Origin: a bacterium
Lineage (GTDB): Bacteria > UBA8248
Assembly: GCA_965202625.1 (NCBI GenBank)
Contig: CBDBBI010000010.1
Location: forward strand, 1,728,001-1,792,000
DNA length: 64,000 bases
Direction of reading: 5' to 3'
Below are positions 12,372-62,653 of this stretch, in pieces. Made by a program: the position numbers and the translations under genes. Below the pieces are notes generated by a model. It saw only the letters and a program-made list of their open reading frames with translations, was not told the DNA's origin and did not search any database. Positions within the stretch are counted from its first letter, which is position 1. Every line of letters starts with the position of its first letter.

Positions 12372-12458
12372 GTGCGGGCCAATCCTTGCGGAGAGTATGC
12401 GTTGCGGGCGAACGCTTGCGAGAGCGTGCGGTGCGCAATCCTTTTGCGAGGGTGTGAG
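12372..12458. repeat. Three degenerate tandem repeats of about 29 bp
   Basis: gtgcgggccaatccttgcggagagtatgcg / ttgcgggcgaacgcttgcgagagcgtgcg / gtgcgcaatccttttgcgagggtgtgag. Confidence 0.4.
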
Positions 12459-12470
12459 ACAAGTCGTGTG

Positions 12471-12555
12471 GAGAGGATGGAACGCAAGATCGTTCCCATC
12501 GTCGCCGGATTCGGCCTCGCCTCTTGGCCGGACTCGGAGACGCCCGGGCCGCCGA
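12471..12555 (+). pseudogene. Relic duplicate of the 5' end (signal peptide) of the binding-protein gene at 7093
   Basis: ATG 12477 gives MERKIVPIVAGFGLA vs MKRKIVTIVAGFGLA; DNA similarity continues past a frameshift to gccgccgag, then ends. Confidence 0.75.
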
Positions 12556-12929
12556 GAGGCGGGCGGCTCAATGAGGAGAGCGGCGAGTGGAATACGCTTT
12601 CAGAACGCGAAATTCTATTCGCGCAAACGAGAAGCATATGAAAATTCGTGTACATTTACGACGCTTATCGAAAGTTTCAAGAATGATTCAGGAGTTATGC
12701 ACTGAACTATGCAAATAAAGACGTCCGCAATTGCTTGTTTTTTTCGGTAAGTTCCAGTCTGAACCGCTCTGTTCCGATTTTCCGCCGCACCCCGATACCC
12801 TCTCCCTCAAGTAGCGCCTCCATTCATTCCATTCCCTGAATTTTGAAACTTTTTCTCCGGGTCGGTGTAAATCTCGGCTTCTTTTTGTAGACGGATAAGC
12901 TTGCATAAAATTGCTCAGAGTTCCAACGC

Positions 12930-13359
12930 TTTTCCCATCCTACAGTATGAAGCATGTCGTTGCTTATTCCGCCATAAAATATTCTTCAATGACAATATAT
13001 CTCGTGTTCTTATTATGCAGTCTACCAATGGAATATCTAACCGGCGGCTTGCCCTCAGCCAATAGGCAAACGGACTGAACAGAGCGGTGAATCGAAAGCG
13101 GAACGGGGCCAAAATGTCGACAAGTGGATTCCACTCCTTCATCAAGACTTCAACGGCATCGACAATTTCGGAAACTGTATTCTAAATCCGTCCTATTCTT
13201 TAGTTTATACAATAATTCGCCAATTTCCGATCGTCGTGTATTGAATCGTGGGTGTTCACATTCATCAGCTCCAATTTTGATGATGCTCAACGTATGAAGA
13301 ACAAGGGCGAATCCCTCTCTTCATTTTCCTACTATTTTTTGCCGGACGAACTTAGTCAT
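12930..13359 (-). pseudogene. Degraded ComF-family phosphoribosyltransferase-like gene
   Basis: AGGAG RBS, then MTKFVRQKIVGK*REGFALVLHTLS...HPRFNTRRSEIGELLYKLK; other frames give TVSEIVDAVEVLMKEWNPLVD, PVPLSIHRSVQSVCLLAE and SRRLDIPLVDCIIRTRDI; one stop, several frameshifts, C-terminal PRPP loop not seen. Confidence 0.55.
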
Positions 13360-13410
13360 TATGTCTCCTGCGTCGTGACTTTGGTCAAGATACTTCATCA
13401 CTATAATACT

Positions 13411-13440
13411 TTGTCAAATTTACATAGTTAAGTTTATAAT
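13411..13440 (+). promoter_or_regulatory. Putative sigma70 promoter for the DinB-like and OsmC-like genes
   Basis: TTGTCA-N18-TATAAT. Confidence 0.45.
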
Positions 13441-13513
13441 TCTCAAAATTTTCGCTTCTTGATTTATCCTGCATTCCCTGTTCGTCCCGCGCCCACCCGG
13501 AGGAGTCCCGAGG

Positions 13514-14185
13514 ATGGAGGAACGAAAGAATTCAGCACGTGCGCTCTTTCCCGCGTATCCGCAAGTCGTTGAATTATTTACGCAAGAGACGCTCGACCTG
13601 CGCGAGGCGACTCTTCTGAGAAGAAGAGAGGAGAAAGCCTGGGGCTTGTGGTCCATCCAGGATCAGGTGAGTCACGTAGCCTCCCTGCCCTATCGGTGGT
13701 TGCTGGTGCGCTGGGGGGCCGTTCTGTTTGGCGACGACTTGCCGCGCGAGACGAAACTGCTCGACAGATTCGACGATCGCATGATGAAAAGGGAATATTA
13801 TCCAAAAATTCAAGGACTTATCAACGTCATGCGAGATTCGTTCTCACTCGCTTGGGAGGTGCTGGGTGCTGAATCGACCAAATCCATTCGGGACGAGCGC
13901 AACGTTTCCGAGCGCGTATCCGTGGGTATGAGGCGGCCCGGAACCAACGAGGACGTTCGCAAGTGGCGGGAAAACGTAACTCTCAAGGCGCATTCCACCG
14001 GCGTATGGATCGATCCGCATGACGCAGAGCTGTTTCGTTATAATCTAGAATACACGTTTCGCCACATGCTTTGGGAGGCGTATGCCCATCTCAAAACCAT
14101 TCAGATGCACAAAAAAGAGGAAAACATGAAACCCATCGGCAGAATTCCCCAAGATGGGTACATCTCCGTGCTGAAATGGGAGTAA
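13514..14185 (+). CDS. DinB/YfiT-like protein (putative)
   Basis: WSIQDQVSHVA and FRHMLWEAYAHLKTI resemble DinB His-bearing helices; GGAGGAG RBS. Confidence 0.6.
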   Translation: MEERKNSARALFPAYPQVVELFTQETLDLREATLLRRREEKAWGLWSIQDQVSHVASLPYRWLLVRWGAVLFGDDLPRETKLLDRFDDRMMKREYYPKIQGLINVMRDSFSLAWEVLGAESTKSIRDERNVSERVSVGMRRPGTNEDVRKWRENVTLKAHSTGVWIDPHDAELFRYNLEYTFRHMLWEAYAHLKTIQMHKKEENMKPIGRIPQDGYISVLKWE

Positions 14186-14253
14186 CTCTAATGATGAACA
14201 ACAATTTGCGAGCACTAAAATCTGCATCCCCTAACCTTGAGGGACGGACAAAC

Positions 14254-14814
14254 ATGGTGGAAAACCCGAACTATCCTTGGCATGAGAGCACCACGCCCGG
14301 TGAGAGGCCGATTGACAAGCCTGAACTTCCAAAAGACGGCTACGAGATCACCATGCTCGCCGAAACAGAGAAGATGGACGACGGACAACTGAAAATCGGT
14401 CGATTCCGACATTTTAAGGTTTTCAGCGATGAACCGCCTCGCATCGGAGGAGAAGATAGATATCCCCAGCCCCTCACCTATATCGCCATGGGGGTTGGCT
14501 TCTGACTGTTGACCCAGATGGGGCGGTACGCCCACATGACGAAAACAACCTTTGAAAAAGCCGCCTGTCGTGTTGAGTTTGATTATTTTCTAAAGGGTTC
14601 TGTACTGAAAGGAGACGTCCATTCGGGGTGCCGAGGGGTTCGGACGCACTTTAAGGTGGAATCCAGCGAACCGGAAGAGAAAATCCTTGCTATCATTCGG
14701 CTGGCGAAACAAGGCTGCTACGCCGAGCAGATGGTGCAAACAGCGGTTCCGCTCACAAGCACCGTCGAATTGAACGGTAAAAGCATTACGTTGACAGGAA
14801 TCACGACAAATTGA
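14254..14814 (+). CDS. OsmC-like selenoprotein (Sec at TGA 14503-14505, residue 84)
   Basis: Two in-frame ORFs separated by one TGA: SDEPPRIGGEDRYPQPLTYIAMGVGF-U-LLTQ...QGCYAEQ; the TGA occupies the first conserved OsmC Cys position; hairpin downstream. Confidence 0.85.
14518..14537 (+). promoter_or_regulatory. Bacterial SECIS-like hairpin of the OsmC-like gene
   Basis: ATG-GGGCG-[GTA]-CGCCC-A-CAT after a 12-nt spacer from the TGA; G-initiated apical loop. Confidence 0.65.
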
Positions 14815-14942
14815 AACCAGCACGCGATTCTACAGGCTAAAACCGAGTGCGACCGATGCGCGTCATCCAACAAACCATGGCACCAGACGCACACAGATAT
14901 GTGCACTGAATATCCTACAAACGCTTTACTCTTTCGATTCTC

Positions 14943-15018
<76 letters not shown>

Positions 15019-15212
15019 ACCATGTAGAGAAACGCCTGATGAGCAAAGCGTATTTCTTATCGGCCAATTTTTCCCTGCAAGGCAATCTTTTCTATATACC
15101 TAAGCAAGAACGGGGAAATTCTAAAACCTCCCATCATGAAGGTCAACGTAGAAACGCCCATCGCTCCCATATCCGACTTGATGCGAGGGAAGCTCTCTCC
15201 TATGGTAAAAGC

Positions 15213-16231
15213 ATGTTGACCCGCTCTTCATTCCCCGTGGGCAAGCTCCCCCCAGACATACTGGAGGTTTTATTCCAAAAGGCAGACCCTCATTCGCGCC
15301 TCATCGTGGGTCCGCAGATTGGGGAAGACACAACCTCATCGACATCGGAGATCGTTATCTAGTCGCCAAATCAGACCCCACTATATTCGTAGGGAGTCAT
15401 ATCGGACGTTACGCCGCTCACGTGAACGATGTCGCTTGTATGGGCGGACACCCCCCCCTGTGGTTCCTGATGACGCTGTTGCTGCCCGATGGACGCACCA
15501 GCGAGGCGATGGTAAACCGGATTTGGAAAGAGGCGCAAGACGCTTGCCCTGAATCTGGGGATCGCCATATGCGGCAGACACACGGAGAGCACGTCGGGGC
15601 TGAAATTCCCGATTCTTTCCAGCCACATGACATGTTGGGGGAAATCGCCAAGGAAAAATTCATTCGGAGCGCGAACGCCCGCGTGGACGACATCATTCTA
15701 CTCACCCGCCCCATACCGTGGAAGGAACGGCGATCTTGACAAACTCTACATACGATTGTTTGAAAAACGTTCTCGACATGGAGATATTAGAGAGCGCGAA
15801 AAGATATCTTGATTCTCCGAGCATCAGCGTAGTGGCGCAAGCGGCTTGCAGCGTCTGAAACACGACGCGCTCACGCCATACATGGACCCGACCGAAGGGG
15901 CCCTCGCCACAGGCACCTATGAGCTGGCCGTAACCCCTAGTCTCGGAGCAACCGTGGAGGAAAGCAAGATTCCCATCTCTTTTGAGAGCGGAAAAATTTG
16001 CGAAGTGTTGGGGCTCGACCCGTTGAGGGTCATCACCTCGGGGGCGCTTCTGTTGACACTTACAGCCAAGGAGAAGGAAATTTTCCGAAAAACGCTAATA
16101 GAAAAGCGAGTGCGATGGGAGTTCACATAGGCAGGTTATGTGCGCCTGAATGCGGGGTGACGATTCAATGCAGAGGAATATCCTCTCCCCTGTAGCACTT
16201 CCACACCGATGAAATCTCAAAAATCATTTAG
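15213..16231 (+). pseudogene. AIR synthase/HypE (PurM-like) family pseudogene
   Basis: Fragments across frames: GKLPPDIL..VGPQIGED / LIDIGDRYLVAKSDP..VNDVACMGG / LGIAICGRHTE / DPTEGALAT..LGLDPLRVITSGALL; several frameshifts and a stop. Confidence 0.8.
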
Positions 16232-16241
16232 AAAGATAAAG

Positions 16242-16831
16242 ATGAATCGAGCCATGAGGGGCGTGTTGCTCGATTTCGACGGCACGCTCACAAAACCCGC
16301 ATTTGATTGGCCCACTATGAAAAAGGAGATGAAATTACCGGATGAAAACGTATCGATTTTAGACCATCTCGTCAGCCTATCTCCTGAACGCGTACGTGAA
16401 ACATCGAGCATACTAGAAAAATATGAGCGCGAAGCCGCCAACAACGCGGAAGCCAACGAAGGCGCCCATGAACTGATCGCGCGCACCTGCGAATCGAAAA
16501 AATTCCCTTTGCGGTCGTGACAAACAACGCGGAGCGGCAGGTCCTAGAAATGGCGAAAAAAATAGATATAGAGTTCGAGGTTCTGATCACGCGAGATATG
16601 GGATATTAGAAGCCAGACCCGAAACCCCTCCTTGCAGGCGCTGCGGCCATCGGCGTAGCACACCCAGTGAATGTATCGTCATCGGAGACGGGAAATACGA
16701 CGTTGATGGCCGCCAAAGCGGCGGGAATGTTGTCCGTTCATCTGTGCGCATCCCCTTCGACACCCAGTGATTTCACCCTTTCCCATCTACTTGAGGCTCC
16801 CGCGCTTATCAAGCAACTCATTGAAAAGTAA
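16242..16831 (+). pseudogene. HAD-family hydrolase pseudogene
   Basis: DFDGTL motif I; after a frameshift VVTNN, TRDMGY*KPDPKPL; then IGDGKYD...AAKAAGM. Confidence 0.8.
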
Positions 16832-17377
16832 AGATTTGGGGCACGCCTCCTCAGAGACATGCCCCATGATGGAAGGAATTTGCCTAAGTTCAGGCAAACC
16901 TTTTGGCGAGATGTCAGTGCATCAGCATCAGGGGATCCCTCTGCTGATCACCGGAAAGGAAAGGCCCCTATCTCAAGGGACCATTGAAGGCCGATGACGC
17001 TTCACACCCTTATTATATGCACGAAACGTGCCAAAATAGACTCTTTTGCCGCATACAATCCACTAATCTCCTAATCATAAACGTATCAGTAATATACCGC
17101 CCATAACCGGGCGCGAAAACTCCGCTAAGGTGCCTTAGATTTCTGACGTTCACTCGCTTAATTTGACTATTTTTCGGGAATACAACGCCAGAATTTGACA
17201 AAATGTCAATTTTCAGTGGGGAGGGATGAGATGAAAAACGCGCTCCGATAACGACGCCACAAGAAAAAGCCTTTTGACTTTATCGAAAAATCGCGTCTGT
17301 CTTTTGATAGAAATTTACGCATATCTGCGAATAATCCGGTGGCAATCACCTACGCAGACGTTACGGATACTTCCGCA

Positions 17378-28666: not shown

Positions 28667-30223
28667 CTATTTTACCTCGATTTTCCGGGCGTAGGCGATC
28701 GCACCGCCTGGCGCTTTCCATTCGGGCGCGCCCTCCACGCGCAGCACTCGCCGGTTCACCTGCAATAGCCAGACTTTCGCCGAAGGTTCCACTCTCCGCA
28801 GCAACGGACCGGGATATAGACCGATCCAGAACATGAGCACCACCAAAGGCAGCATGATGATCCATTCACGCCGGCTCATGTCGGAAAGCCCCAAGTTCAC
28901 CCGCGCCCGCACCTCACCAAATAAAACGCGCTGGAGCATCCAAAGCATATAGACCGCAGAGAGTACCACCCCGGTGGCCGCGGCGGCAGCGAACCAGGCG
29001 CTGCGCTCAAACACGCCCAGCAGAATCGTGAACTCCCCCACGAAGCCGTTCAGCCCCGGAAGGCCGATGCTGCTCAACGCCGTGATGATAAAAAACGCCG
29101 AGAACGCGGGCATCACCCGAATGAGGCCGCCGAAGTCCTCGATCCTCCTCGTGCGCCTGCGCATGTAGATAAAACCCACGATGAGGAAAAGCGCCCCGCT
29201 GCTGACGCCGTGGTTCACCATCTGCAAAACGCTTCCCGAGGCACCAAGAAGGTTGAAGGAGAAAAGCCCTAAAATCACGAAACCCAGATGGCTGACCGAG
29301 GAGTAGGCTACGAGTTTCTTCACGTCGGTCTGCACCATCGCCATCAGCGCGCCATAGATGATCCCCACCACTCCCAGGCACATGAGCAAGGGCGCGAACT
29401 CATGGGCCGCAGTCGGAAACAACGGCATCGCCAGCCGCATGAAACCGTAGGTGCCCATCTTGAGGAGGACACCAGCCAGAATGACGCTTCCCGCGGTGGG
29501 CGCCTCCACGTGGGCGTCGGGCAGCCATGTGTGAAACGGGAAAACCGGTACCTTGATAGCGAAGGACACCGCGAACGCCGCAAACAGCCACGACTGCAAA
29601 GCGGGGTCCAGCGGCTCCCGAAAATGCGCCAGCATGTCGAACGTGCCGACGTCGCTCGCGAAATACAGCCAGATGATCGCCACGAGCATCAACACGCTTC
29701 CGGCCATGGTGTAAAGGAAGAACTTCACGGCCGCGTAAACCCTGCGGCCCCCGCCCCAGACCCCGATGATGAGATACATCGGAATCAGCATTCCCTCCCA
29801 GAAGACGTAGAACAAAAAGAAATCGAGCGCGAAGAACACGCCGAGCATCCCCGTCTCCAAGAACAGCAGGGACATGTAGTAGAGCCGCGTCCTGTGTCGC
29901 ACGTCGTCGAAAGAGAAGAGAATCGCTATAGGCGTCAGGAAGGTGGTCAGCATCACAAGAAGCAGACTGATGCCGTCCACGCCCACCTTGTAGGAGATTC
30001 CGAAACGGGGAATCCACGCAGCCTCCTCGACGAACTGCATTCCCGAGAATTCGGGACGAAAGGCAACGTACATTCCTGCAGACAGGGCGAACGTGACCAG
30101 GGAGACCGCCAGGGCGAACGCGCGAATGCCTCCGTTTCGGCCGCGCTCATCTTCACACGCGAACCCGAGCGCCAGCCCCCCGACCAGGGGCAAAAACAAC
30201 ACCAAAGTGATTATTCCAGGCAC
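28667..30223 (-). CDS. nuoM: NADH-quinone oxidoreductase subunit M (complete operon)
   Basis: AIKVPVFPFHTWLPDAHVEAPTAGS. Confidence 0.95.
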   Translation of the reverse strand: MPGIITLVLFLPLVGGLALGFACEDERGRNGGIRAFALAVSLVTFALSAGMYVAFRPEFSGMQFVEEAAWIPRFGISYKVGVDGISLLLVMLTTFLTPIAILFSFDDVRHRTRLYYMSLLFLETGMLGVFFALDFFLFYVFWEGMLIPMYLIIGVWGGGRRVYAAVKFFLYTMAGSVLMLVAIIWLYFASDVGTFDMLAHFREPLDPALQSWLFAAFAVSFAIKVPVFPFHTWLPDAHVEAPTAGSVILAGVLLKMGTYGFMRLAMPLFPTAAHEFAPLLMCLGVVGIIYGALMAMVQTDVKKLVAYSSVSHLGFVILGLFSFNLLGASGSVLQMVNHGVSSGALFLIVGFIYMRRRTRRIEDFGGLIRVMPAFSAFFIITALSSIGLPGLNGFVGEFTILLGVFERSAWFAAAAATGVVLSAVYMLWMLQRVLFGEVRARVNLGLSDMSRREWIIMLPLVVLMFWIGLYPGPLLRRVEPSAKVWLLQVNRRVLRVEGAPEWKAPGGAIAYARKIEVK

Positions 30224-30259
30224 CCGCCTCTCCCGCTCCTCAAGCCAACCAGAAAAATG

Positions 30260-32164
30260 TCAACGCGCCGTGAGATACAACAATATGACCAGCGCGCCGA
30301 TCAGCATCGAAACGGCGTAGCTTTTCACGTAACCCGTCTGGAGGCACCGCAAGGCGCCACCCAGGGCGCGCGCGAAAAAACCCGCGCCGTTCACCGCCGC
30401 GTCCACCAAGCCATCCTCAAAAACTCTCCAGCACCAGATCGAAGCCCGCTTCACCGGCTGAACGATACAGGCGTCATACGCCTCGTCCACATAGTATTTG
30501 TTCTCCAGAAGTCGGAAGAGGCCCGGCCAGAGCGCGACGTAAGCGCTGCCGCCGTCATCGCGCGCGACGTAAAAGTTATACGCCATGTAAATGCCGAGGA
30601 GCGCGATGGCAAGCGAGAACAACATCATCAAAATCTCGAGCATCACCTCATGGTGCGCCTCCACGGGTCCGCCAATAGAAGGAGCGAGGAAATCCCCCAG
30701 AACGTTCGCCCCCGGAATGAGGGGAATCCCCACCCAGCCGCCAATGAGGGAGAGCGCGGCAAGCACCTGAAGCGGCAAGATCATGGAACGGGGGGATTCA
30801 TGGACCTTCTCCTGCTCCTCCAGTCCCAGCCTGCAAGAACCAAAGAACACCCGAAACAAGAGCCTGAACATATAAAACGCGGTCATCAGCGCACCGGCCG
30901 CCCCCGCGAGCCACAGGAGAACGCCGCCGCCATCAGCCGTCATGGCAGAGTACAGAATCGCGTCCTTGCTAAAAAAACCGGCGAAGGGGAATATCCCCGC
31001 GATGGCCAGCGCGCCAAGCACGAAGGCGTTGCCCGTTTTCGGAAGCGCGGCGTGCAACCCGCCCATCCGACGGATGTCCTGCTCGCCGCCCAGAGCGTGA
31101 ATCACGCTCCCCGCACCCAGGAAGAGAAGCGCCTTGAAGAACGCATGCGTCATCAAATGAAAAATCGCCGCAGAAAACGCCCCGACTCCGCACGCCAGAA
31201 ACATGTAGCCCAGCTGGCTCACCGTGCTGTAGGCGAGCACTTTCTTGATGTCGTTCTGTACCAAGGCGATCGAGGCCGCCATCAGGAGCGTGAGCGCTCC
31301 CACGGTCGCCACCACCAGCATCGCCGAGGGAGAGAGCACGAACAGCGCGTGCGTTCTCGCCACCATATAGACGCCCGCCGTCACCATTGTGGCCGCGTGT
31401 ATCAAGGCACTGACGGGAGTGGGACCCTCCATCGCGTCGGGGAGCCACACGTAAAGGGGAATCTGCGCACTTTTGCCAGTGGCGCCGGCAAACAACAACA
31501 GGCAGATGACCGTCGCCGCTGTGTTATCGGGACCAAGAAGCACGGGCGCCTTGGAGAACACAGTGGAGAAATCTAGAGAGCCGAATACATTATACAGATA
31601 AAAAAGAGCGATCAGAAAACAGAAATCACCCACCCGGTTCACGATGAAGGCTTTCTTACCGGCCTCGGCTGCCGCCTTGCGCTCGTACCAAAACCCAATC
31701 AGCAGATAGCTGCAAAGACCCACCGCCTCCCAACCCACGAACATCACCAGGAAGTTGTCCCCCAGAACGAGCATAAGCATGGAAAACGAGAAAAGATTGA
31801 GATAGATGAAATAGCGGACCACACCCCGGTCGCCACGCATGTAGCCCATTGAGTAAAGGTGAATCAGTGTCCCGACGCCCGTGACGACGAGGGTCATCAC
31901 TGATGCGACCGGGTCTAGGGCGAAGCCCGCCTTCACCTCGAAGCCGCCGATGGGAATCCAGTCGAACAAAAAGGCGCGAATGAGCCGATCTTGGGTGGGA
32001 GTCGCCAAAAGGCGGAGCCAGCCCATAAGCGCGGCCAGAAACGCGAGCCCCATCGCCGTCGTCGCCACCCAGCCGGCAAATTTCTCCCCGCGTTTCCATC
32101 CAAAGAGGAGGTTCACCACGACGCCGAGGAGGGGGAAAGCCAATATGAGAATTAAACTATCCAT
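30260..32164 (-). CDS. nuoL: NADH-quinone oxidoreductase subunit L (complete operon)
   Basis: GKSAQIPLYVWLPDAMEGPTPVSALIHAATMV. Confidence 0.95.
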   Translation of the reverse strand: MDSLILILAFPLLGVVVNLLFGWKRGEKFAGWVATTAMGLAFLAALMGWLRLLATPTQDRLIRAFLFDWIPIGGFEVKAGFALDPVASVMTLVVTGVGTLIHLYSMGYMRGDRGVVRYFIYLNLFSFSMLMLVLGDNFLVMFVGWEAVGLCSYLLIGFWYERKAAAEAGKKAFIVNRVGDFCFLIALFYLYNVFGSLDFSTVFSKAPVLLGPDNTAATVICLLLFAGATGKSAQIPLYVWLPDAMEGPTPVSALIHAATMVTAGVYMVARTHALFVLSPSAMLVVATVGALTLLMAASIALVQNDIKKVLAYSTVSQLGYMFLACGVGAFSAAIFHLMTHAFFKALLFLGAGSVIHALGGEQDIRRMGGLHAALPKTGNAFVLGALAIAGIFPFAGFFSKDAILYSAMTADGGGVLLWLAGAAGALMTAFYMFRLLFRVFFGSCRLGLEEQEKVHESPRSMILPLQVLAALSLIGGWVGIPLIPGANVLGDFLAPSIGGPVEAHHEVMLEILMMLFSLAIALLGIYMAYNFYVARDDGGSAYVALWPGLFRLLENKYYVDEAYDACIVQPVKRASIWCWRVFEDGLVDAAVNGAGFFARALGGALRCLQTGYVKSYAVSMLIGALVILLYLTAR

Positions 32165-44562: not shown

Positions 44563-45432
44563 TCACCCCGCCAGAATGAGCAGAACGATGCCCGCCAGAA
44601 TCACCCCCCCGCCAAGGAGGGTTTCGCCGACGCGCTCGCCCTCCCCGAAGAAGAGATAGCCGATGGCGATGGCGAGCAGAATCTCGACCTGCTTCACCGA
44701 CTCCACGTAGGAGGTGAGCGTGAGGCGGTAGGCTTCCGCCTGGGCGAGGCTCGTGATGAAGGCGAAAAATCCCAGCGCCACGAAGCCCTTCCAGAGCCTG
44801 GGAGCCTGCCTGAAGCGCGCGGCGGATTTCCAAAGGGTCACGGGCAGGACGACCAGAGAGGCCACCGCATACGCCACGAGCGTGCCGAAGGGCCCATCAG
44901 AGAGCACCGCCGCCTGTTTGAAGGTGATGACCGAGGGGGCGTACATCAAAGAAGAGAGCAGCGTGTAGCGCATCCCCTTATCGGCGTAGATGGCGCGAAC
45001 CGGCTCGAACCAGCCGATTCGCGCGCGCGAGACGTTCAGCCCGTATACGCCCGCCAACGTCAGAAGCACCCCCGACAGCCCCCAGACGGAGGGCGCCTCG
45101 CCCAGCGTGATGAAGGAGAGTGCGACCAGCCAGATGAGCGAGAGTTTCCACAACGACGTCACCACCCCTATCGCGCCATGTAGAAGCGCCTTGGAGAGCA
45201 TGAGAGTGGCCAGGGTTTGAGAGAGGCCGAACAGGACGCACACCCACCAGAAGCCGGGCCGTATCTCGGGCACTCCCTTCATCCACACCGCCAGGGCGGC
45301 GAAAGGGAGCAGAAACGCGAATCGCCCCAGGACGTTGATGTATGCGTCGAGCTGGTGGCCGATAGATTTCATCGCCGCGTTTCGAGACGCCTGCGCGAGG
45401 GCTGCGACGACGGAGAACGCTACCCAGTCCAT
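44563..45432 (-). CDS. DMT/EamA family transporter
   Basis: About 10 hydrophobic segments in two repeats; LGEAPS and FFGEGE loop motifs. Confidence 0.85.
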   Translation of the reverse strand: MDWVAFSVVAALAQASRNAAMKSIGHQLDAYINVLGRFAFLLPFAALAVWMKGVPEIRPGFWWVCVLFGLSQTLATLMLSKALLHGAIGVVTSLWKLSLIWLVALSFITLGEAPSVWGLSGVLLTLAGVYGLNVSRARIGWFEPVRAIYADKGMRYTLLSSLMYAPSVITFKQAAVLSDGPFGTLVAYAVASLVVLPVTLWKSAARFRQAPRLWKGFVALGFFAFITSLAQAEAYRLTLTSYVESVKQVEILLAIAIGYLFFGEGERVGETLLGGGVILAGIVLLILAG

Positions 45433-45607
45433 TTCACGCTCCTCGCCATGACGAGAGAAATCAAGGCGTTTTCTACGCGCACTTGGGCGCTAAGTCCAGC
45501 AGGGAGACGGCGGCAATTCTCATCCGGCTATCTTCGGCGTCTGACAAAAAAGAGCGCGTGTGCTAGGCTTGTGCGGACGATTCATCCTTCAGAAGGGGCC
45601 TTCGCGC

Positions 45608-46636
45608 ATGATACGAGACGACGTTTTCGTGTTCGACAACGTGGTCCACATGTATGACTACTCGGACGAGAATCTCCTCTCGGCGCAGAGCGCATACGAT
45701 CGCCACTATCACGTGAGCAAAGTGATCGGCAGAAGGCGGACGTCGCCTTCCGACGTCTATGCGGAGTGGGACCCGGTGGAGGGCTTCAAGCGCCGTTGGA
45801 GCGTGGAAGACATGGGTCGCCTCGTCTTCGAGGATTCTGGCACGGACATGGCGATGGCCCAGGCGGTGCCCTTATTCGACTTATACAAGGACGGCTTCGC
45901 GCCGGTGCGGGCGCAGTACGCGTTCACCCAGGCGTATCCGGAACGCGCCCTGTTCTGCGGGGCGGTGGACCCGATGTATCCGAGCGTAGCCGCCGCCTGC
46001 GAGGAGATGGAGCGCCAGGTGAAGGAGTGGGGGGCGAAGTCCATCAAAATCTATAACGCCCACGTGGACGGGAAATCATGGGCGTGCGACGACCCCGAAA
46101 TCGCTTATCCCCTTTACGAGAAAGGGCGCGAGCTGGGGGTGCGGGTCTTTCAGTTTCACAAGGGAAACCCCATCACCAGGGCCAAATTGCGCGACCTCTC
46201 GCCCCTGGACATCGAGGGCGCCGCCATGGATTTCCCCGATCTGCTCTTCGGCGTCCACCATCTGGCGGTGCCCTATTTTGAGGAGGTCGTATGGATGGCG
46301 AACCGCTACGAGAACGTCTTTCTCGTTCTCTCGGGCGTCGGCCACACCCCTATGATCGCGCCAAGAACCTTCACCGAGTGGATGGGCAGGCTGCTGCGCG
46401 ACGTGGGCGCGGAGAGAATTCTCTGGGGCTCGGAAATGGCGCTTCTCGGAAACGCGCGGCCCGTGCTCGAGTGGATATGGGAGATGGAGATTCCCGAATC
46501 CATGCAGGAGGACTACGGCTATCCGCAAATCACCGAGGAGGACAAGCGCAACATCCTGGGGTTGAACCAGGCGCGCATCTTCGGCGTGGACGTGGTGGCG
46601 AAGATGCGAGAGCTCTGGAGCGCAGAGACGAGATGA
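45608..46636 (+). CDS. Amidohydrolase_2 family protein
   Basis: FDNVVH, QFHKG, VHHL, ERILWGSE, DKRNILGLNQARIF. Confidence 0.85.
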   Translation: MIRDDVFVFDNVVHMYDYSDENLLSAQSAYDRHYHVSKVIGRRRTSPSDVYAEWDPVEGFKRRWSVEDMGRLVFEDSGTDMAMAQAVPLFDLYKDGFAPVRAQYAFTQAYPERALFCGAVDPMYPSVAAACEEMERQVKEWGAKSIKIYNAHVDGKSWACDDPEIAYPLYEKGRELGVRVFQFHKGNPITRAKLRDLSPLDIEGAAMDFPDLLFGVHHLAVPYFEEVVWMANRYENVFLVLSGVGHTPMIAPRTFTEWMGRLLRDVGAERILWGSEMALLGNARPVLEWIWEMEIPESMQEDYGYPQITEEDKRNILGLNQARIFGVDVVAKMRELWSAETR

Positions 46637-46971
46637 GAGACTACGACGCCCTCACCTCGGACGTGGAGGACATCATCGAAACACAGATTCGCCCGCTTCT
46701 CAAGATTCACGGCGGCGGAATCTCGCTCAAAAGCGTGAGCGAGAGGGGAGAGGTGTCGCTTCGCTTTGAGGGGGCGTGCCGGGGTTGCGCCCTCAAAAGC
46801 GTCACTTACGCCCTGGGCGTCCGACAAAAGCTCATGCAGCATCCGGAGGTATCGGACGTGACGGTCGAGGGCGTTCGCCTCTCCAGGCACGCCATCAAGC
46901 GGGTCGAGAAATTCTACTCCGGCTACTCGTTCTGGGTGGGGCATCCGGTCAAAAGCCCCTCATCCCCTTGA
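46633..46971 (+). CDS. NifU C-terminal-domain (Nfu-like) Fe-S carrier protein
   Basis: IRPLLKIHGGGI...LRFEGACRGC CxxC motif; ATGA overlap with the upstream gene. Confidence 0.85.
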   Translation: MRDYDALTSDVEDIIETQIRPLLKIHGGGISLKSVSERGEVSLRFEGACRGCALKSVTYALGVRQKLMQHPEVSDVTVEGVRLSRHAIKRVEKFYSGYSFWVGHPVKSPSSP

Positions 46972-47585
46972 TCGCCGCGCGCTACCGAAACGCGAAGAGC
47001 CTGCGTCTTTTGTCCGGTTGGTTCATCCTGTTCGCCATCTTCGTCATTCTGGCGATCATCATCGGCGTCAGAAACTCCATCGGCGTCTTCTTCAAAGAAA
47101 TCTCCGGCGCGTTCGGCTGGAATCGCGCGCAGACGGCCGCCGCCTTCACCATGCGCATGCTCGGACAGGCGGTGGCGGCCCCTTTCACCGGCTGGGCACT
47201 TGAGCGCTTCAACATACGGTGGGTGATAGCCGCGGGCATTATCGTGAACGGATGTGCCCTCCTCATCGGGGCCCACATAGGCGCGCTCTGGCATTTTTAC
47301 GCCATGTATTTTCTGCTCTCCGTGGGCTTCGCCCTCGGTTTCGTCCGGCCTACCGCGTCCTCCCTTCTGGCCGATCATTTCGCTGGGCCAGGCTTCGGTC
47401 TGCTGAACGGGTGCGCGATGATAGTCTTCTCTATCGTGGGTGCCCTCGGCCCCCTTGTGACGGGAATGCTCTTCGACGCGAGCGGAACCTACTACGGGGG
47501 CTTTCTCATCGCCGGCGGCATGTTCATCGCGGGCACGCTCTTCCTCGCGCGCCTCTCAAGGCTTCCGCGTCCTGAGCGCGGCTAG
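46968..47585 (+). CDS. Half-size (6-TM) MFS transporter with an in-frame internal deletion
   Basis: TTG start overlapping the Nfu stop; N-part aligns with TM1-4 and C-part with TM10-12 of the adjacent full MFS. Confidence 0.7.
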   Translation: MIAARYRNAKSLRLLSGWFILFAIFVILAIIIGVRNSIGVFFKEISGAFGWNRAQTAAAFTMRMLGQAVAAPFTGWALERFNIRWVIAAGIIVNGCALLIGAHIGALWHFYAMYFLLSVGFALGFVRPTASSLLADHFAGPGFGLLNGCAMIVFSIVGALGPLVTGMLFDASGTYYGGFLIAGGMFIAGTLFLARLSRLPRPERG

Positions 47586-47589
47586 GTTC

Positions 47590-48849
47590 ATGGGGCAAAT
47601 GCGTCCGGGCGAATCGCGCCTCTGGTACGGCTGGGTGGTTCTGGTGGTCGTTTATCTCGTCATGCTCACGCTCATCGCCTTTCGCGCCACCATCGGTCCC
47701 TTCTTCAAGGAAATCTCCGGCGAGCTGGGCTGGAGCCGCGGGGCGACGGCGGCGGCTTTCTCGATCGGAATGCTCGCCCAAGCGGTCGTCTCGCCGCTGG
47801 CGGGCGTTTTTTCTGACCGCTGGAGCATTCGGGCCTCCATGTCGGCGGGCGTTCTGATATTCGGTCTCTCCCTGCTCATCGGAAGCCAAATCACCGCGCT
47901 TTGGCAGTTCTATCTGATGTACGTCGGCCTTTCCGCGGGCTTCGCCGCGGGCACGTGGGTCGCCCAGGTGCCCACGCTCTCCAACTGGTTCGTGAAAAAA
48001 AGAGGACTCACTCTCGGAATCGTCAACACCGCCCAGGGCGGAGCTTTCGGCCTAAACATCGCAACCCCCTACCTCATCGCTGGCCTGGGCTGGCGGATGA
48101 GCTATCTCGTTCTGGCGGGGACAATCTTGCTCATCGTCCTTCCCGTCTGCGCCATCTTCCACAGGGATCGCCCCTCCGACAAAGGCACCATCGCCGACGC
48201 CCCCTTCGTTCAGGCCGCGCCGGATGCGGAGGCCGCAAAACCGGCGCCCCCGCCGCCCAGCAACGCGCGCGTCTCTTTGCGCAACTTGCCGTTTTTCTTC
48301 TTTCTAGGCTCGTTTCTCCCCATGGCTTACACCTTCACGGGAATGCTCGTTCATCTCGTGCCCCACGCCACAGACCAGGGCTTCTCGCTAGAAGCCGCAA
48401 GCGTCCTGTTCGCCCTATGGGGATTCTGCCAGGTGGGGGCGAACCTCGTCAGTCCGGTTTCCGATAGGCTGGGGCGAGTTCCGACGTTCCTCATCGGGGC
48501 GGGTCTCGGCGTATTCTCCACCCTCGTTTTGGCTGTCTATGAACGGGGAGACCCAGAGGTGCGCTTCTATCTCGGAACGATGGCCAACGGCGCCGCCCTC
48601 GGTCTCATGCGTCCCACCGGTTCGGCGCTCCTGGCGGATTATTTTGAGGGCCCCGGCTTCGGGCGCGTGAACGGAGTGGCGATGATGGGATTCGCCCTCG
48701 TGGGCTCGGCGGGGCCGTGGGCGACGGGCGCCCTGTTCGACCTGCAAAGCTCCTATCTGCTGGGCCTCTCGCTCTTCGCGCTCATGTTTTTTCTCTGCGG
48801 CGTCTTCGCTCTGTTGCTCGGGTGGATAAAAAAGGATAAGAGAGAATAA
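47590..48849 (+). CDS. MFS transporter (12 TM)
   Basis: GVFSDRWSIR and VSDRLGR motif-A copies; NWFVKKRGL. Confidence 0.9.
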   Translation: MGQMRPGESRLWYGWVVLVVVYLVMLTLIAFRATIGPFFKEISGELGWSRGATAAAFSIGMLAQAVVSPLAGVFSDRWSIRASMSAGVLIFGLSLLIGSQITALWQFYLMYVGLSAGFAAGTWVAQVPTLSNWFVKKRGLTLGIVNTAQGGAFGLNIATPYLIAGLGWRMSYLVLAGTILLIVLPVCAIFHRDRPSDKGTIADAPFVQAAPDAEAAKPAPPPPSNARVSLRNLPFFFFLGSFLPMAYTFTGMLVHLVPHATDQGFSLEAASVLFALWGFCQVGANLVSPVSDRLGRVPTFLIGAGLGVFSTLVLAVYERGDPEVRFYLGTMANGAALGLMRPTGSALLADYFEGPGFGRVNGVAMMGFALVGSAGPWATGALFDLQSSYLLGLSLFALMFFLCGVFALLLGWIKKDKRE

Positions 48850-48885
48850 GTCACTGCCTGAGCGCCTGCGCCTTTGAGGATGCAC

Positions 48886-49791
48886 ATGCCCATTAAAAAG
48901 GTTGATGGGTTCCATTTTCACCCAGAATCGCGCGAGCGCGTTCTCGCCCAGCGCCAGGCGGACTCCTCCAAAACGCCCTGGACGCCGATGCGCAAACCGC
49001 TTGCCGCGCGCCGGGTCACTCTGATCTCCACGGCCGGCATCTTCAGGAAGAATGACGTCTCCTTCGACTACGAGAGAGAGCGCCGGGAGGGTACTTGGGG
49101 AGACCCGACCCACCGGGAGATACCCAAAACGGCGGGGCAGGACGACGTGGTCTACTCTCATCTCCACGTCGACACCTCGTTCATGGCCGAGGACAGAAAC
49201 GTGGCTTGGCCGGTCGACGTCTTCCTGGATTTCGAAAAGGAGGGAAAAATCCGCGCTCTTGCGGACACGCTGTATTCCATCATGGGCTACATTCCGAATT
49301 TCAATCCGCTCGTGAAGCGCACCGCACCCCTTATGATTCAGAAGATGAAAGACGAGGACGTGGAGGCGGCGTTTCTCTTTCCGGTCTGACCCCTGTGCAA
49401 TCGGTCCGGCGGACTGCTCCAGCGCGAAATCGAAAAGGCGGGAATTTCCACCGTCATCATCTCCAACGTGCCTGAGACCATTGAGCGCGTTTGCGCGCCT
49501 AGGGCCGTCTTCGTCCAGTATCCCTTCGGACGGCAGTTGGGCCTCGTAGGAGATTACGACGGCCAGCGCAGGATTTGCGAAGACATGACGGCGCTGCTGG
49601 AGGAGGCGCAAGCCCCCAACGCCTATCGGCATCTGCCCTACGAGTGGTCCGAGCCGCCGGAGACCACGAAATGGCGTCCCGACGTCCCCCCACCCATATT
49701 CGCAATTCGGGCGGCGAAAGAGGGCGGCCAAAATCTGATGGACGACTACAAGGACGAGGAGCGAGTCGCGTATTCAGACACGAAGCGCTAG
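48886..49791 (+). CDS. Glycine/sarcosine/betaine/D-proline reductase selenoprotein-B-like protein (Sec at TGA 49387-49389, UxxC)
   Basis: PWTPMRKPLAARRVTLISTAG, GDPTHREIP, DRNVAWPVD; in-frame read-through FLFPV-U-PLCNRSGGLLQREIEKAGISTV...APRAVFVQYPFGRQLG. Confidence 0.88.
49402..49416 (+). promoter_or_regulatory. Bacterial SECIS-like hairpin of the selenoprotein-B-like gene
   Basis: CGGTCC-[GGC]-GGACTG after a 12-nt spacer from the TGA; G-initiated loop. Confidence 0.65.
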
Positions 49792-49902
49792 CCGAATGCC
49801 CTACACTCCAGCCCCCAGAAGAATTACGCTTTCTCTATGTAGCCAGCCAAACAAAAATAATTACGAACGGCTTGGAAAAAAGGCCGTGAAAGGGAAAGGG
49901 GG

Positions 49903-50673
49903 TTATGAAGTCGCCGCATCCCGCACGGCACGCGAAAGACACCCGGGGCAGTGACATTGGTCATCACGGGGAGAATGAACGAGCCCGTGCAAAACACCTC
50001 CTTCAGAGTCGAACCTGGATGCGATTTTGCCAAAGTATCTGGTGTCGCGGATACTCGTATCTACGCCAAACGGCCCAAGCGACGAGATCGGCAATCTGGA
50101 TAATCCGCGAAGCTTGTGAATCAACGAACAGAGGAAACTCCGCCAAATTGTGCAACCTACCCCATCTCGTCCCCCGAACCCGAAACGTCCGGGCGAGACT
50201 TTGCAGCGCACCCTCGTAGTTCGATTTGTCCATGACGACGAGACCGCGATGTCTTCCCTCTTCCTTTTTTCCTGCTCGATCATAGATGCGTTTTAGTTGG
50301 AGGTTGAAGCGATTGCATATCTCTTCAAAAGCGTATTCAACCGGATCATTCGGGGCGCGTTGCACCTTATGAACTACAACCGCAAACAAACGCTCCGATG
50401 GCTTTCTCGGACGATGTCCAGAGCATCTGCGATGATTTGAGAGGATTTTTCCTTTGAAATTCCCTTCCAAGGATCTTCTCTTCTATTGTAGATGACGCTG
50501 GCATGAAGTTCTATATCTTCAGGAGGACCGAGGCCCAAGGATTCAACGAATTTATCAATGCGTTGAATCAAATGAAAAATTTGACGCTCGAATACGGAAA
50601 TGCCACCAAGAATGAAATACTCCTCGTTCGCGTTTCTCATCGAGCCGGAACCGTCAACATAGATGAGATACAT
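49903..50673 (-). pseudogene. DUF3800 domain protein with two frameshifts
   Basis: MYLIYVDGSG..FILGG..ELHAS; shift near 50400 to RLFAVVVHK..FVDSQASRIIQIADLVAWAVWRRYE; shift near 50050 to RDTRYFGKIASRFDSEGGVLHGLVH. Confidence 0.8.
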
Positions 50674-50860: not shown

Positions 50861-51625
50861 TTAGGTGGCCTGCTCCGCCGCCTGCATCGCTTCTTCGAGC
50901 TCCTTCGGGGTGAGGGGATCGCCCACGCCGATCATCGAGTCGCGCGTCACGAGTTGGAAGAGTTGCGCCTCGCTCCAGCCCCCGGTTCCTTCCGGCCGCT
51001 GGGGGATGATGAGGTAGCGGCAATCCGCGTTCGAGTCGATGACGATGAGTTCCACGTCATCGGGCGGCTCTAAGCCCATATCCTTGAGGACGCCCCTCGG
51101 GTCGGTCACGGCCTTCGAGCGATAGGGGAAGCTCTTGTACCAGGTGGGCGGCTGGCCGAGGAGCTGTCTCGGGTAGCACGAGCATAGGGTACACACCACC
51201 ATGTAGCGAAGCGAATCGGTATTCTCGAGAGCCACCACGCGGTTGATGCCGGAAGTGTCGATTCCCATCTCCTCGCAGGCAACATCCGCATCCGCCAAGA
51301 GCCTTTCCTTGAAACCTTCATCCACCCAGGCGCGCGCGACGACGCGCGAGCCGATGGCCGGGCTCTGCCCATAAATCTCCTCCACCGACCGCCGCATCTC
51401 GTCGGTGGTGAGAATGCCCTTCTCTCGCAGGACGTTCATCAGCGCCATCACGCGCACCTGATAGTAATCCAAGTCATGCTCGACCTGGGCCACTGCGCCC
51501 GCCCGGTAGGCGTCGTCGGACTGCATCCGCGCGTTGTGAGCCGCCGGGTCCTGGCTGTAGGTGCGCTCGTGATCGCCGTGGTGGTGATGCCGGTTTCCGT
51601 TGTCATGATCGTGGGAGTGCGTCAT
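50861..51625 (-). CDS. Co-type nitrile hydratase alpha / thiocyanate hydrolase gamma-like subunit with a His-rich N-terminus
   Basis: VVCTLCSCYP metal motif, VVARAW, PPTWYKSFPYRS; MTHSHDHDNGNRHHHHGDH N-terminus; GAGGAG RBS. Confidence 0.88.
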   Translation of the reverse strand: MTHSHDHDNGNRHHHHGDHERTYSQDPAAHNARMQSDDAYRAGAVAQVEHDLDYYQVRVMALMNVLREKGILTTDEMRRSVEEIYGQSPAIGSRVVARAWVDEGFKERLLADADVACEEMGIDTSGINRVVALENTDSLRYMVVCTLCSCYPRQLLGQPPTWYKSFPYRSKAVTDPRGVLKDMGLEPPDDVELIVIDSNADCRYLIIPQRPEGTGGWSEAQLFQLVTRDSMIGVGDPLTPKELEEAMQAAEQAT

Positions 51626-51665
51626 GTCGTGCTCCTCGTTCACGGGTGACGCCGGCGGCCTCGCC

Positions 51666-51953
51666 TCAGACCGGCTCCAGCCAGTGCTCATAGATTTCGA
51701 TATAGAGTTTGTCCTGTTTTCGTCCCGCCTCGTGATCCCACAGATCGTTGATGTCAAACGCCACCCAATAGAGCTCCTTGAGCGGAGAACCGTCTCCGCC
51801 GTAGGCTAGATCTTCAGGATTTTTGTATTTGCCGAAGTAGCGGTTGACGACACCGGTCTTTCCCTTCACGTAATACACTGTTCGATGATGGCTGTGCGGG
51901 TACATCTCCTTGACGCGCACCCTGTCGCCCACGCGAAACCGGATTTTCTCCAT
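51666..51953 (-). CDS. Nitrile hydratase beta C-terminal SH3-like domain protein (ScnA-like)
   Basis: FRVGDRVRV..HHRTVYYVKGKTG..NPEDLAYG..LYWVAF..IEIYEHWLEP. Confidence 0.88.
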   Translation of the reverse strand: MEKIRFRVGDRVRVKEMYPHSHHRTVYYVKGKTGVVNRYFGKYKNPEDLAYGGDGSPLKELYWVAFDINDLWDHEAGRKQDKLYIEIYEHWLEPV

Positions 51954-61171: not shown

Positions 61172-62653
61172 CTAACTCGCCAAACGCTGTTGCTTCATCG
61201 CCTCGAAATCCGCCTCGAAGAAGAACGAATCCTCCCCGAACGCCGGCGTGAGTCCAGAGAGCCAAGTGGCGGTCTCGTTATGCTCGGCGAAGAAAACGCG
61301 GCCCATCCACTCGGGGTCCCTCGCTTGCAGGAAACGCAGGGCAAACACGCGTTCTCCGCGTATCTCCTCAACGCCCAAGACTTCTATCTTGCCGGGCGCC
61401 GAGCTCATCACAGGCCCCCGCGCGGTTCGGGACAGCCCCGACACCTGGGAGATGGCTTTTCGGTAAATGGCGTGGGCGCGCGTCAGCGGCAACTCGAAAT
61501 AGCGCTTCGCGCCCGTGTCCCTTTCCACGAACATGTAATACGGCACGAGACCCAAGCGCGTCTGTTCCTTCCACATGTTCGCCCACACGTCCGAATCGTC
61601 GTTAATGTGCTGAAGGAGGGGCGCCTGCGTTCTAATGATGGCGCCCGTCTCCCGCACCCTCCTGATCGCCTCACGCGCCATCGGGGTACTGAGTTCACGT
61701 CCATGATTGAAATGCGCCATGATGGCGACGTGCTTGCCCCCCTTCACCAATTTCTCGAAGAGGTGTAGGACATCGTCCGCGTCGACGTCCGACGTATAGC
61801 GATACGGCCAGAAGGTGAGCGTCTTGGTTCCGATGCGAATATCCCTGATGTGATCGAAACGCGAATCCTCGATCAGGGGCAACAAATAGCCCTCAAGCGC
61901 CTTCGTCTTCATGATCATAGGATCGCCGCCGGTGAGGAGGAGGTCCGTCACCTCGGTATGCTCGGCGAGATATCTGTGCAGGACTTCCGCATCCGTGGAG
62001 ATGAAGCGAAGCTCTTTGTCGCCAATGAACTGCGCCCACCTGAAGCAGAACGTGCAATAGGCGTGGCAAGTCTGTCCCTGTCCCGGAAAGAAAAGCACTG
62101 TTTCGTGGTATTTGTGCTGCATTCCCTCCAGGGATTCACCGTCGAGAACGGGCACGTTCAGTGCCTGCTGCCCACCGGGGTGCGGATTCAAACCCGCTCT
62201 GATCTCATGGATGACGGCTTGCAGCTCATTCTTGGACGCGTCTCGCCTCAACAAATTCGCCACGCGATCGAAGTCTTCCGTCGCCAGCATTCCCTTCTGG
62301 GGAAAGGAAAGCTGGAACAGGGGGTCCTCGGGCACGTTGCTCCAATCAATGAGATTCTCCACCATGTAGTGATTCGTGCGGAAGGGCAGTACGCTCCCCA
62401 CCACTTTTACGTTAAAACGAATCTCCTCAGGAAGGCTCTTCAGTTCAGGAACCTCATTGATATGATGAAGCACGATTGGTCGGTAGCGAGGTGGCTCTAG
62501 GGAAATAAGATTCTTGCCTCCCGTATGCCCCGTCCCGCCGTTTTGCGCACTGGACGCCTTTGGCTCACCTTGTTCGGGATTTTCCGGATAACTAGAAAGG
62601 TTCATGGCTTTCGCCTCCGATTTGAAAAGCGCTTTTGCACCTTGCGTCTCCAT
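61172..62653 (-). CDS. KamA-family radical SAM protein (lysine 2,3-aminomutase-like)
   Basis: HKYHETVLFF, CHAYCTFCFRW CxxxCxxC, LLTGGDP, HFNH. Confidence 0.9.
   Translation of the reverse strand: METQGAKALFKSEAKAMNLSSYPENPEQGEPKASSAQNGGTGHTGGKNLISLEPPRYRPIVLHHINEVPELKSLPEEIRFNVKVVGSVLPFRTNHYMVENLIDWSNVPEDPLFQLSFPQKGMLATEDFDRVANLLRRDASKNELQAVIHEIRAGLNPHPGGQQALNVPVLDGESLEGMQHKYHETVLFFPGQGQTCHAYCTFCFRWAQFIGDKELRFISTDAEVLHRYLAEHTEVTDLLLTGGDPMIMKTKALEGYLLPLIEDSRFDHIRDIRIGTKTLTFWPYRYTSDVDADDVLHLFEKLVKGGKHVAIMAHFNHGRELSTPMAREAIRRVRETGAIIRTQAPLLQHINDDSDVWANMWKEQTRLGLVPYYMFVERDTGAKRYFELPLTRAHAIYRKAISQVSGLSRTARGPVMSSAPGKIEVLGVEEIRGERVFALRFLQARDPEWMGRVFFAEHNETATWLSGLTPAFGEDSFFFEADFEAMKQQRLAS

Follow-up and report, generated by a model that had tools for sequence, protein, structure and literature searches.

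Five genes lie head to tail at 45608-49791 of the DNA studied here, and they raise the question of whether they form one selenium-dependent system, or whether parts with different histories have come to lie together. In order, they encode an amidohydrolase, a small NifU-like protein, two proteins of the major facilitator superfamily (MFS1 and MFS2) and a PrdB-like protein having selenocysteine (Sec) in a UxxC motif. The window (i.e. the whole stretch of 64,000 nucleotides that was analysed, G000:C10:1728001-1792000) belongs to a genome of 3.09 Mb that is 99.69% complete, with a contamination estimate of 4.69%, and the database relatives of its proteins carry the labels of Nitrospinota or Nitrospinaceae metagenome-assembled genomes. 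A preliminary description of this DNA had proposed an undescribed selenium-dependent module. Part of that proposal stands, in that the cluster is tight and its order is kept within the genus. By contrast the selenoprotein falls outside the conserved core beyond the genus, and there the interpretation as a single new selenium-dependent system is not supported.

On balance, and with modest confidence, we read the locus as a composite of three layers. The first would be an old core, comprising a cytoplasmic enzyme of the Amidohydro_2 fold and a NifU-like CxxC partner that is dedicated to it and translationally coupled, the two being passed on together in many bacteria. The second is likely to be a lineage-specific MFS importer of carboxylates that was duplicated in the genus, and whose first copy was reduced to a remnant in this genome. 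The third would be the PrdB-like UxxC selenoprotein, one of several stand-alone paralogues, added on the 3′ side in this genus alone.

The amidohydrolase and its NifU-like partner

The amidohydrolase was followed outside the genome by scanning metagenomes with an alignment built from its close clade. This confirmed 176 relatives, of which the best 80, with 45-92% amidohydrolase identity, were used. The next gene downstream, on the same strand, is a NifU-like open reading frame (ORF) in 72 of these 80 loci, i.e. in 72 of the 74 that have at least 350 bp of downstream sequence; six of the eight exceptions have less than 150 bp. The CxxC motif is kept in all 72 NifU-like partners, with C49 and C52 invariant in 46 sequences. 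Stop and start codons overlap by 4 nt in 36 of the 72; the start codon taken was the one closest to the stop, a choice biased towards small gaps. For 57 distinct pairs, pairwise identity in one protein tracks that in the other (Pearson r = 0.83). Amidohydrolase relatives are numerous, with 1660 at E ≤ 1e-3 and 78 at E ≤ 1e-30 among 1.84 billion cluster representatives.

Of the 80 loci, two carry the PrdB-like gene; their amidohydrolases have 91-92% identity, which places them in the genus of the window. In all four genomes of the sister genus (75% amidohydrolase identity) the block consists of a divergent EamA gene, amidohydrolase, NifU and one MFS gene orthologous to MFS2, and then a convergent nitrile hydratase (NHase) gene. 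The MFS-NHase gap is about 20 bp, and there is no PrdB-like match in the locus in any of the four. Two further genera of the phylum (L093 and L094) have the amidohydrolase and NifU alone. From the sister-genus block without a selenoprotein, together with the 2 of 80 metagenome loci, we conclude that the conserved unit is the amidohydrolase plus the NifU-like protein.

Might the NifU-like gene encode an extra housekeeping Fe-S carrier, its adjacency being without functional meaning? The match to a generic NifU C-terminal domain and the retention of the Nfu-type CxxC are what this would require. Yet the two genes are neighbours in 72 of 74 informative loci, at amidohydrolase identities as low as 45%, the 4-nt overlap occurs in half of the loci and the two proteins diverge together; moreover the genome has another NifU-domain gene, at C10:2437061. 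We therefore regard this explanation as highly improbable. The protein shares with the Nfu and NfuA carriers (PF01106; TIGR03341) the NifU C-terminal domain and G-x-C-x-x-C. It differs in being of a single-domain type of about 95-130 aa, encoded by the second gene of an enzyme pair and not in an isc, suf or nif context. Its score against the NfuA model TIGR03341 is 44.9 bits (cut-off 269.35), with only positions 105-176 of 190 matched, and it is not a two-domain protein.

The neighbours of the pair in 27 scanned metagenome loci include GntR/FCD regulators (6 loci), FAA-hydrolase (5) and short-chain dehydrogenase/reductase (SDR) genes (6), with MFS sugar-type transporters, HpcH aldolase, YjgF and hydantoinase as further neighbours. 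Judged by these annotations, the set would be typical of carboxylic- or sugar-acid catabolism. The pair is carried by soil and marine bacteria, and the nearest Atlas protein clusters are mostly from Actinomycetota. A full-text search of a limited literature set found no paper describing a pairing of NifU with an amidohydrolase, and the pair is apparently an undescribed variant within known families. Prediction of a complex of the two proteins from alignments, made without control runs, gave scores of 0.01 and 0.16 against a mark of 0.32.

The amidohydrolase belongs to PF04909 by both its (β/α)8 fold and its gathering score, and it matched no NCBIfam family. An AlphaFold2 model has a pLDDT of 91.8. 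Its Foldseek neighbours are 3irs (BB4693), gamma-resorcylate decarboxylase, LigW and LigJ, with TM scores of 0.5-0.6, E values of 1e-11 to 1e-9 and 14-20% identity; a sequence search of the PDB returned 3irs only (E 5e-4).

The canonical ligands of ACMSD-type enzymes are HxH on strand 1, His on strands 5 and 6 and Asp on strand 8. In an hhalign alignment H184 and H218 of the window's protein coincide with the canonical His of strands 5 and 6, and E276 with the Asp of strand 8. The canonical set is incomplete, although both of these His residues are retained. On strand 1 the sequence is D-N-V-V-H, and position 12, corresponding to the first His of HxH, is V in 52 and A in 5 of 57 NifU-paired homologues; position 276 of strand 8 (G-S-E) is E in 55 and D in 2. 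In the same 57 homologues twelve residues are invariant: D10, H14, C117, K147, C160, D161, D162, H184, K185, D201, H217 and H218. The motifs DNVVH and WGSE, which the preliminary description had singled out as atypical, are therefore not peculiar to one protein but form a conserved signature of the clade. Relatives at about 35% identity or less have Y, L/M, VH and G in place of the Cys residues, the HH pair and the Glu. Two amidohydrolase paralogues elsewhere in the window have the canonical DPHTH and GTD.

The clade thus resembles the characterized Amidohydro_2 structures (2dvt, LigW 4l6d/4qs5, LigJ 6dxq and 3irs) in its (β/α)8 fold, its strand-5 and strand-6 His and its carboxylate-catabolic context. 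It is distinguished from them by V or A for the first His, Glu for the strand-8 Asp, two invariant Cys, the HH pair and the NifU-like partner. These changes suggest a rebuilt metal site, in which Val replaces the first His of HxH, Glu replaces the strand-8 Asp, and two extra invariant Cys and the HH pair have been gained. The NifU-like protein may mature or load such an unusual metal or Fe-S site, or could serve as a CxxC subunit. The enzyme itself might catalyse a step of the decarboxylase, hydratase or lactonase type on a carboxylic acid. If an amidohydrolase does need its own NifU-type partner, this would be a new theme for the superfamily. The pair appears to be a two-gene module, widespread and translationally coupled, whose active-site signature has been rebuilt; it is small, soluble and testable, and it is the more useful lead from this window.

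The PrdB-like selenoprotein and its paralogues

The last gene of the cluster is a genuine selenoprotein gene, and its product is not a Grd or Prd subunit. The in-frame TGA lies within U-P-L-C and the protein matches PF07355, in agreement with its first assignment as a GrdB/PrdB-like UxxC protein. Conservation of the frame extends to either side of the TGA, with 82-87% identity among 18 genomes of the genus, and Cys homologues have C at the Sec position. The genome encodes the means of decoding it: selA (565.5 bits), selB (361.4 bits) and selD (332.6 bits) all score above cut-off, selA and selB are adjacent, selD is itself Sec-containing (i.e. it carries a TGA), and a tRNA-SeC(tca) is located at C10:1674549-1674645. 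The UGA is followed by a hairpin for which 97.2% of cells are paired across 24 homologues, with two covarying pairs. None of 500 shuffles scored as high and slid controls gave 24-56%. An Rfam scan of the region 45000-50500 at E up to 1 gave no match, and the single-sequence fold of the 60 nt following the UGA was no better than shuffles (z = 0.19).

The best NCBIfam model for the selenoprotein is that of D-proline reductase PrdB (TIGR04483), matched over positions 17-235 of 238 with 120.7 bits against an equivalog cut-off of 300. The GrdB models scored 49.4 against 65.45 bits (TIGR01918) and 45.1 against 602 bits (TIGR01917). The PF07355 match covers only positions 213-344 of 347, so that about 210 N-terminal residues of the GRDB profile are unmatched.

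The absence of selenoprotein B partners, remarked on before for the window, extends to the whole genome: neither GrdE/PrdA (PF09338) nor GrdA (PF04723) has a match, GrdC and GrdD not being among the families searched. This absence is meaningful because the same searches find both families beside grdB in the genome of Anaerophilus, used as a positive control, with 723.7 bits for PF09338. Because the genome has no pyruvoyl proprotein, the selenoprotein is unlike the clostridial proline or glycine reductase in its working. It resembles clostridial PrdB/PrdA (TIGR04483; Kabisch et al. 1999, as cited in the available parts of PMC13188914 and PMC1088965) in its near-full coverage of the model and in the place of UxxC. 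It differs in scoring far below the cut-off, in having no PrdA or GrdE in the genome and in an extra C-terminal tail of about 45 aa. In contrast to the Stickland fermenters, the organism encodes two complex I operons. For the structure of the selenoprotein, a PDB sequence search returned nothing and a Foldseek search with the model gave no match at E up to 1e-3. Via a wide fold search the best Z was 8.0, to generic Rossmann-like folds (SDRs, LacI), which is uninformative on function.

The selenoprotein had been described as lone. In fact PF07355 is matched at four places in the genome, each with a TGA at UxxC, representing three distinct paralogues plus a near-duplicate contig; the near-identical copies lie on C10 and the short contig C2. 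The three are found in three different contexts. In addition to the one in the cluster, one follows a DinB/MDMPI-SCP2 gene and another is upstream of genes for a cysteine-dioxygenase-like cupin, an alpha/beta hydrolase and an amino-acid permease. Contig C2 at 11284-14676 repeats C10:2150451-2153843 almost exactly, including the DinB-linked PrdB-like gene, and probably represents a variant strain or a duplication in the assembly. PF07355 is matched in 46 of 51 genomes of the phylum, usually at three to six places each, nearly all with exactly one in-frame TGA. The database homologues are mostly fragments of 167 aa ending at the TGA, under the names 'selenoprotein B family protein' or 'PrdB'. 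In addition, though not in G000, many of the phylum's genomes carry long GrdB-type genes (e.g. G042:C9:106134-107171) scoring about 400 bits to PF07355, with frames of about 440-480 aa and one TGA.

In marine surveys, as far as the available parts of these papers tell, a 'proline reductase PrdB' (pfam07355, UxxC) is among the most abundant selenoprotein families (PMC1088965, PMC2398784), with 42 genes in the Sargasso Sea (PMC1088965) and 235 Sec and 110 Cys forms in the Global Ocean Sampling data (PMC2398784). A 2026 review, in the part available, gives for PrdB the clostridial function only (PMC13188914). The window's protein is a member of this marine family by its gathering score for the common Pfam family, by UxxC with Sec in first place and by its stand-alone gene without reductase partners. 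It is alike also in that the family has mostly Sec and a minority of Cys forms, and occurs in aerobic marine microbes without reductase partners. Compared with the parts of those surveys available, what is new is the expansion into multiple paralogues in the phylum (i.e. in the 46 of 51 genomes) and their context-specific subclades.

These contexts were examined at 20 PrdB-like loci of other genera (57-77% identity), 3 of which had less than 2.1 kb of upstream sequence. In none of the 20 is there an amidohydrolase, NifU or MFS gene beside the PrdB-like gene. A DinB/SCP2 gene is directly upstream in six. The order creatininase - alpha/beta hydrolase - cyclase is upstream in three, with the creatininase seen by Pfam in two of those. 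SDR and/or zinc-dependent alcohol dehydrogenase genes precede it in five (both in four, the dehydrogenase alone in the fifth), and the remaining loci have MBL/LigB or Amidohydro_1 neighbours by Pfam. In a maximum-likelihood tree of 26 PrdB-like sequences the context-specific subclades are separate and supported, and each is monophyletic; the clade of the window (100/99) is sister (95/91) to that with creatininase and cyclase neighbours. From these sequence comparisons the PrdB-like paralogues look like accessories, each bound to its own gene set, and the link with the amidohydrolase would be one case in one genus. We note that such orphans are among the commonest selenoproteins of ocean metagenomes, and that the position of the paralogues at the ends of different hydrolase and oxidoreductase operons narrows where to look. 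The window is not the key to this orphan family.

Gene order in the genus and the place of the selenoprotein

Among close loci from species-representative genomes the order amidohydrolase-NifU-MFS(-MFS)-PrdB-like is found in 13 of 14, with EamA and nitrile-hydratase-like flanks wherever the fetched sequence extends. In the remaining locus (61% identity) two PrdB-like genes lie in tandem, and the other genes are absent. In 21 of 22 genomes of the genus the amidohydrolase (91-93%) and the selenoprotein (82-87%) are on one contig, the exception being a genome that is 79% complete. The preliminary description had named co-occurrence in other genomes as the check on its module: all five genes do occur together in these 21 genomes, but in that genus only. 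It had also taken an order conserved in no other genome, or a canonical grd/prd set elsewhere in this one, as grounds for giving the module up. What was found is an order kept in the genus, and a genome with no partner set.

The spacing of the amidohydrolase and the selenoprotein varies with the content between them. It is about 2.92 kb in 17 genomes of the genus, corresponding by the listed coordinates to two full MFS genes, 1.64 kb in one genome with one MFS gene, and 2.24 kb in the window's genome only. A further genome has 4.2 kb, with one MFS gene and an insert between the amidohydrolase and NifU genes. This insert (L029:2835-5249, in G023) contains a DNA methyltransferase/HNH gene and a 347-aa ORF without Pfam match. 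Two genomes have 5.8 kb; in these, three genes on the opposite strand, occupying 2.9 kb, separate MFS2 from the selenoprotein. They (L033:4383-6809, and the same place in L034) are glyoxalase-fold, polysaccharide deacetylase and CMD/AhpD-like genes. The selenoprotein frame is split in both of these genomes as well as in G032, the three split copies being those of G030, G032 and G035, by either real decay or long-read assembly error. We considered the split copies as a sign of decay or dispensability and dropped the idea, as long-read assemblies may hold frameshift errors.

The value of 2.24 kb results from a change in the transporters. The preliminary description counted two MFS transporters, but just one is intact in this genome. 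By alignment with the full-length orthologue of L021, MFS1 has lost about 222 codons in frame between two short repeats encoding VGFA, leaving the N-terminal quarter and the last helices. It is full length (about 420 aa) in 11 of 13 syntenic relatives and missing in the other two, and judged by gene spacing the deletion is unique to this genome among the 22 of the genus. The same deleted form is present on a DNA contig of a public sequencing run, which may be the assembly's own source. For MFS2 the best NCBIfam model is that of the L-lactate transporter SfMCT (102.1 bits against a cut-off of 320), the oxalate:formate antiporter model giving 48.4 against 335, and it belongs to the wider MFS_1 family only. 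Its sequence suggests a transporter of oxalate/formate-antiporter or monocarboxylate-transporter type, below the equivalog cut-offs for either.

Transcription was examined over 45300-50100. A scan with a sigma-70 consensus, which may not be that of the host, found one promoter-like site, downstream of the cluster, and none in the 36-bp gap between MFS2 and the selenoprotein. Terminator-like sites occur inside genes only, with none in that gap. Metatranscriptome contigs of one study, with at least 99% identity, cover 46486-47004 (the NifU/MFS1 junction), 48073-48234, 48701-48867 and 49017-49560 (across the UGA). They touch the amidohydrolase, NifU, MFS2 and selenoprotein genes, without bridging MFS2 and the selenoprotein, and carry-over of DNA is possible.

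Several observations weigh against the composite of three layers. Two metagenome loci (L100 and L146) are truly without NifU, so adjacency is not obligatory; an amidohydrolase paralogue in the genus (64-67% identity) has no NifU neighbour at any of four loci (L090-L092 and L095); and many of the 80 loci may be related to one another, distinct pairs numbering only 57. The neighbourhood is constant within each PrdB-like subclade, which argues for ties to neighbours and not random placement. Within the genus the selenoprotein gene is always beside the operon, 36-45 bp after MFS2 in most genomes, and the short terminator-free gap together with the constant adjacency makes functional coupling in the genus possible. 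The paralogue of 64-67% identity is present in this genome as a degraded copy with four in-frame TAG codons (G000:C10:89019-89510, outside the window).

Such coupling might go so far that the amidohydrolase, the NifU-like CxxC protein and the UxxC selenoprotein together process an imported carboxylate in a system restricted to the genus, in which for example a CxxC-to-UxxC relay would drive reduction of the product. The order kept in 21 of 22 genomes and the short gap free of terminator-like sites are consistent with this, as are the RNA-library contigs of at least 99% identity over parts of four of the genes. The stable neighbourhoods of the PrdB-like subclades, often with amide or lactam hydrolases (creatininase, cyclase, Amidohydro_1, MBL), also fit. 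Against it, the core of the sister genus is without the selenoprotein in all four genomes, two of which have no short PrdB-like gene anywhere (all four have a long GrdB-type gene elsewhere), and the PrdB-like gene accompanies the pair in 2 of 80 metagenome loci. Opposite-strand genes separate MFS2 from the selenoprotein in two genomes, synteny in one genus is weak evidence, and RNA contigs cannot show a single transcript. We consider this arrangement possible but on the doubtful side.

A bolder version is that the NifU-like protein is not an Fe-S carrier but the obligate CxxC subunit in what would be a novel class of Amidohydro_2 enzyme. C117 and C160 would share with the CxxC a bridging Fe-S cluster or a dithiol relay, performing redox chemistry on carboxylic acids, and in the genus the relay would be extended by the UxxC selenoprotein. 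This is an outside chance in our estimation; if correct, the long-orphan marine 'PrdB' family would gain its first defined partner system.

At the other extreme the selenoprotein might be an unrelated neighbour, i.e. an independent redox enzyme of stress or detoxification whose gene arrived between MFS and NHase in the ancestor of the genus and has been held there by neutral synteny. The insertion point is the end of an operon facing a convergent gene, and other paralogues lie beside stress or redox genes (DinB/MDMPI, MsrB, glyoxalase, CMD/AhpD-like and cysteine dioxygenase). Where opposite-strand genes intervene, in two genomes, the gene would need its own promoter. Yet the sigma-70 consensus scan, the one scan made, found no promoter-like site in the 36-bp gap, and context-specific subclades fit a generic role poorly, so that we think this unlikely. 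Under the three-layer composite that we prefer, the selenoprotein is probably co-transcribed with the operon here, and would act as an accessory selenol/thiol redox enzyme and not as a subunit required by the core.

Anatomy of the locus and other features of the window

The coordinates of the features are collected in the table. The five genes are tightly packed, with the junctions first noted for them: the stop of the amidohydrolase and the start of the NifU-like gene overlap in ATGA at 46633-46636, the stop of the latter overlaps the TTG start of MFS1 at 46968 (TTGA), and gaps of 4 and 36 bp follow MFS1 and MFS2 respectively. The TTG start is backed by orthologues beginning MIA(S/A)RY. The ATG at 48886 has GAGGA 6 nt upstream and agrees with the start of the 167-aa database fragments.

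Table. Features of the five-gene cluster and its conserved flanks (positions in the window)
Feature	Position	Strand	Basis and remarks
Amidohydrolase, Amidohydro_2 fold, 342 aa, non-canonical clade	45608..46636	+	PF04909 4e-29, 102.6 bits (cut-off 26.4)
Small NifU C-terminal-domain protein, 112 aa, single CxxC (GACRGC)	46633..46971	+	PF01106 3e-16, 59.6 bits (cut-off 27)
MFS1 remnant, 205 aa	46968..47585	+	MFS_1; in-frame internal deletion relative to full-length orthologues
MFS2 transporter, 419 aa	47590..48849	+	PF07690 (MFS_1), 141 bits
PrdB-like UxxC selenoprotein, 301 aa, Sec168 (counted from ATG 48886)	48886..49791	+	PF07355 7e-8, 32.6 bits (cut-off 22)
Sec codon TGA	49387..49389	+	In frame within FPV-U-PLC; frame open to 49791
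Hairpin of 6 bp, like a Sec insertion sequence (SECIS)	49402..49416	+	Begins 13 nt past the UGA; alignment-based pairing test
EamA-family transporter, divergent, conserved flank	44563..45432	-	PF00892; same place in genus and sister genus
Nitrile hydratase (NHase) alpha/beta-like genes, convergent, other conserved flank	50861..51953	-	PF02979, PF02211

In the downstream flank the NHase alpha-like gene is extended at its N terminus by a His-rich stretch, and there is a 95-aa ORF whose match to the beta subunit is confined to the C-terminal part. Between the selenoprotein and the NHase-like genes, on the reverse strand at 50003-50673, a DUF3800 match is split across two overlapping ORFs (50374-50673 and 50003-50470), suggesting a frameshifted gene; these ORFs are present in 2 of 13 syntenic loci only.

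Elsewhere in the window there are two separate nuo (complex I) gene sets on the reverse strand at 17378-41861, one having a large fused 49-kDa subunit (497 aa) and an 865-aa NuoG-like gene. The region 12000-17300 has a GC content of 0.52, compared with about 0.60 in its flanks, and short ORFs only. It may be an island; its ORF at 13514-14185 was scanned and has no Pfam match. Four large ORFs (493-762 aa) at 5146-8472, 29288-31576 and 61172-62653 are without Pfam match at E ≤ 1e-3.

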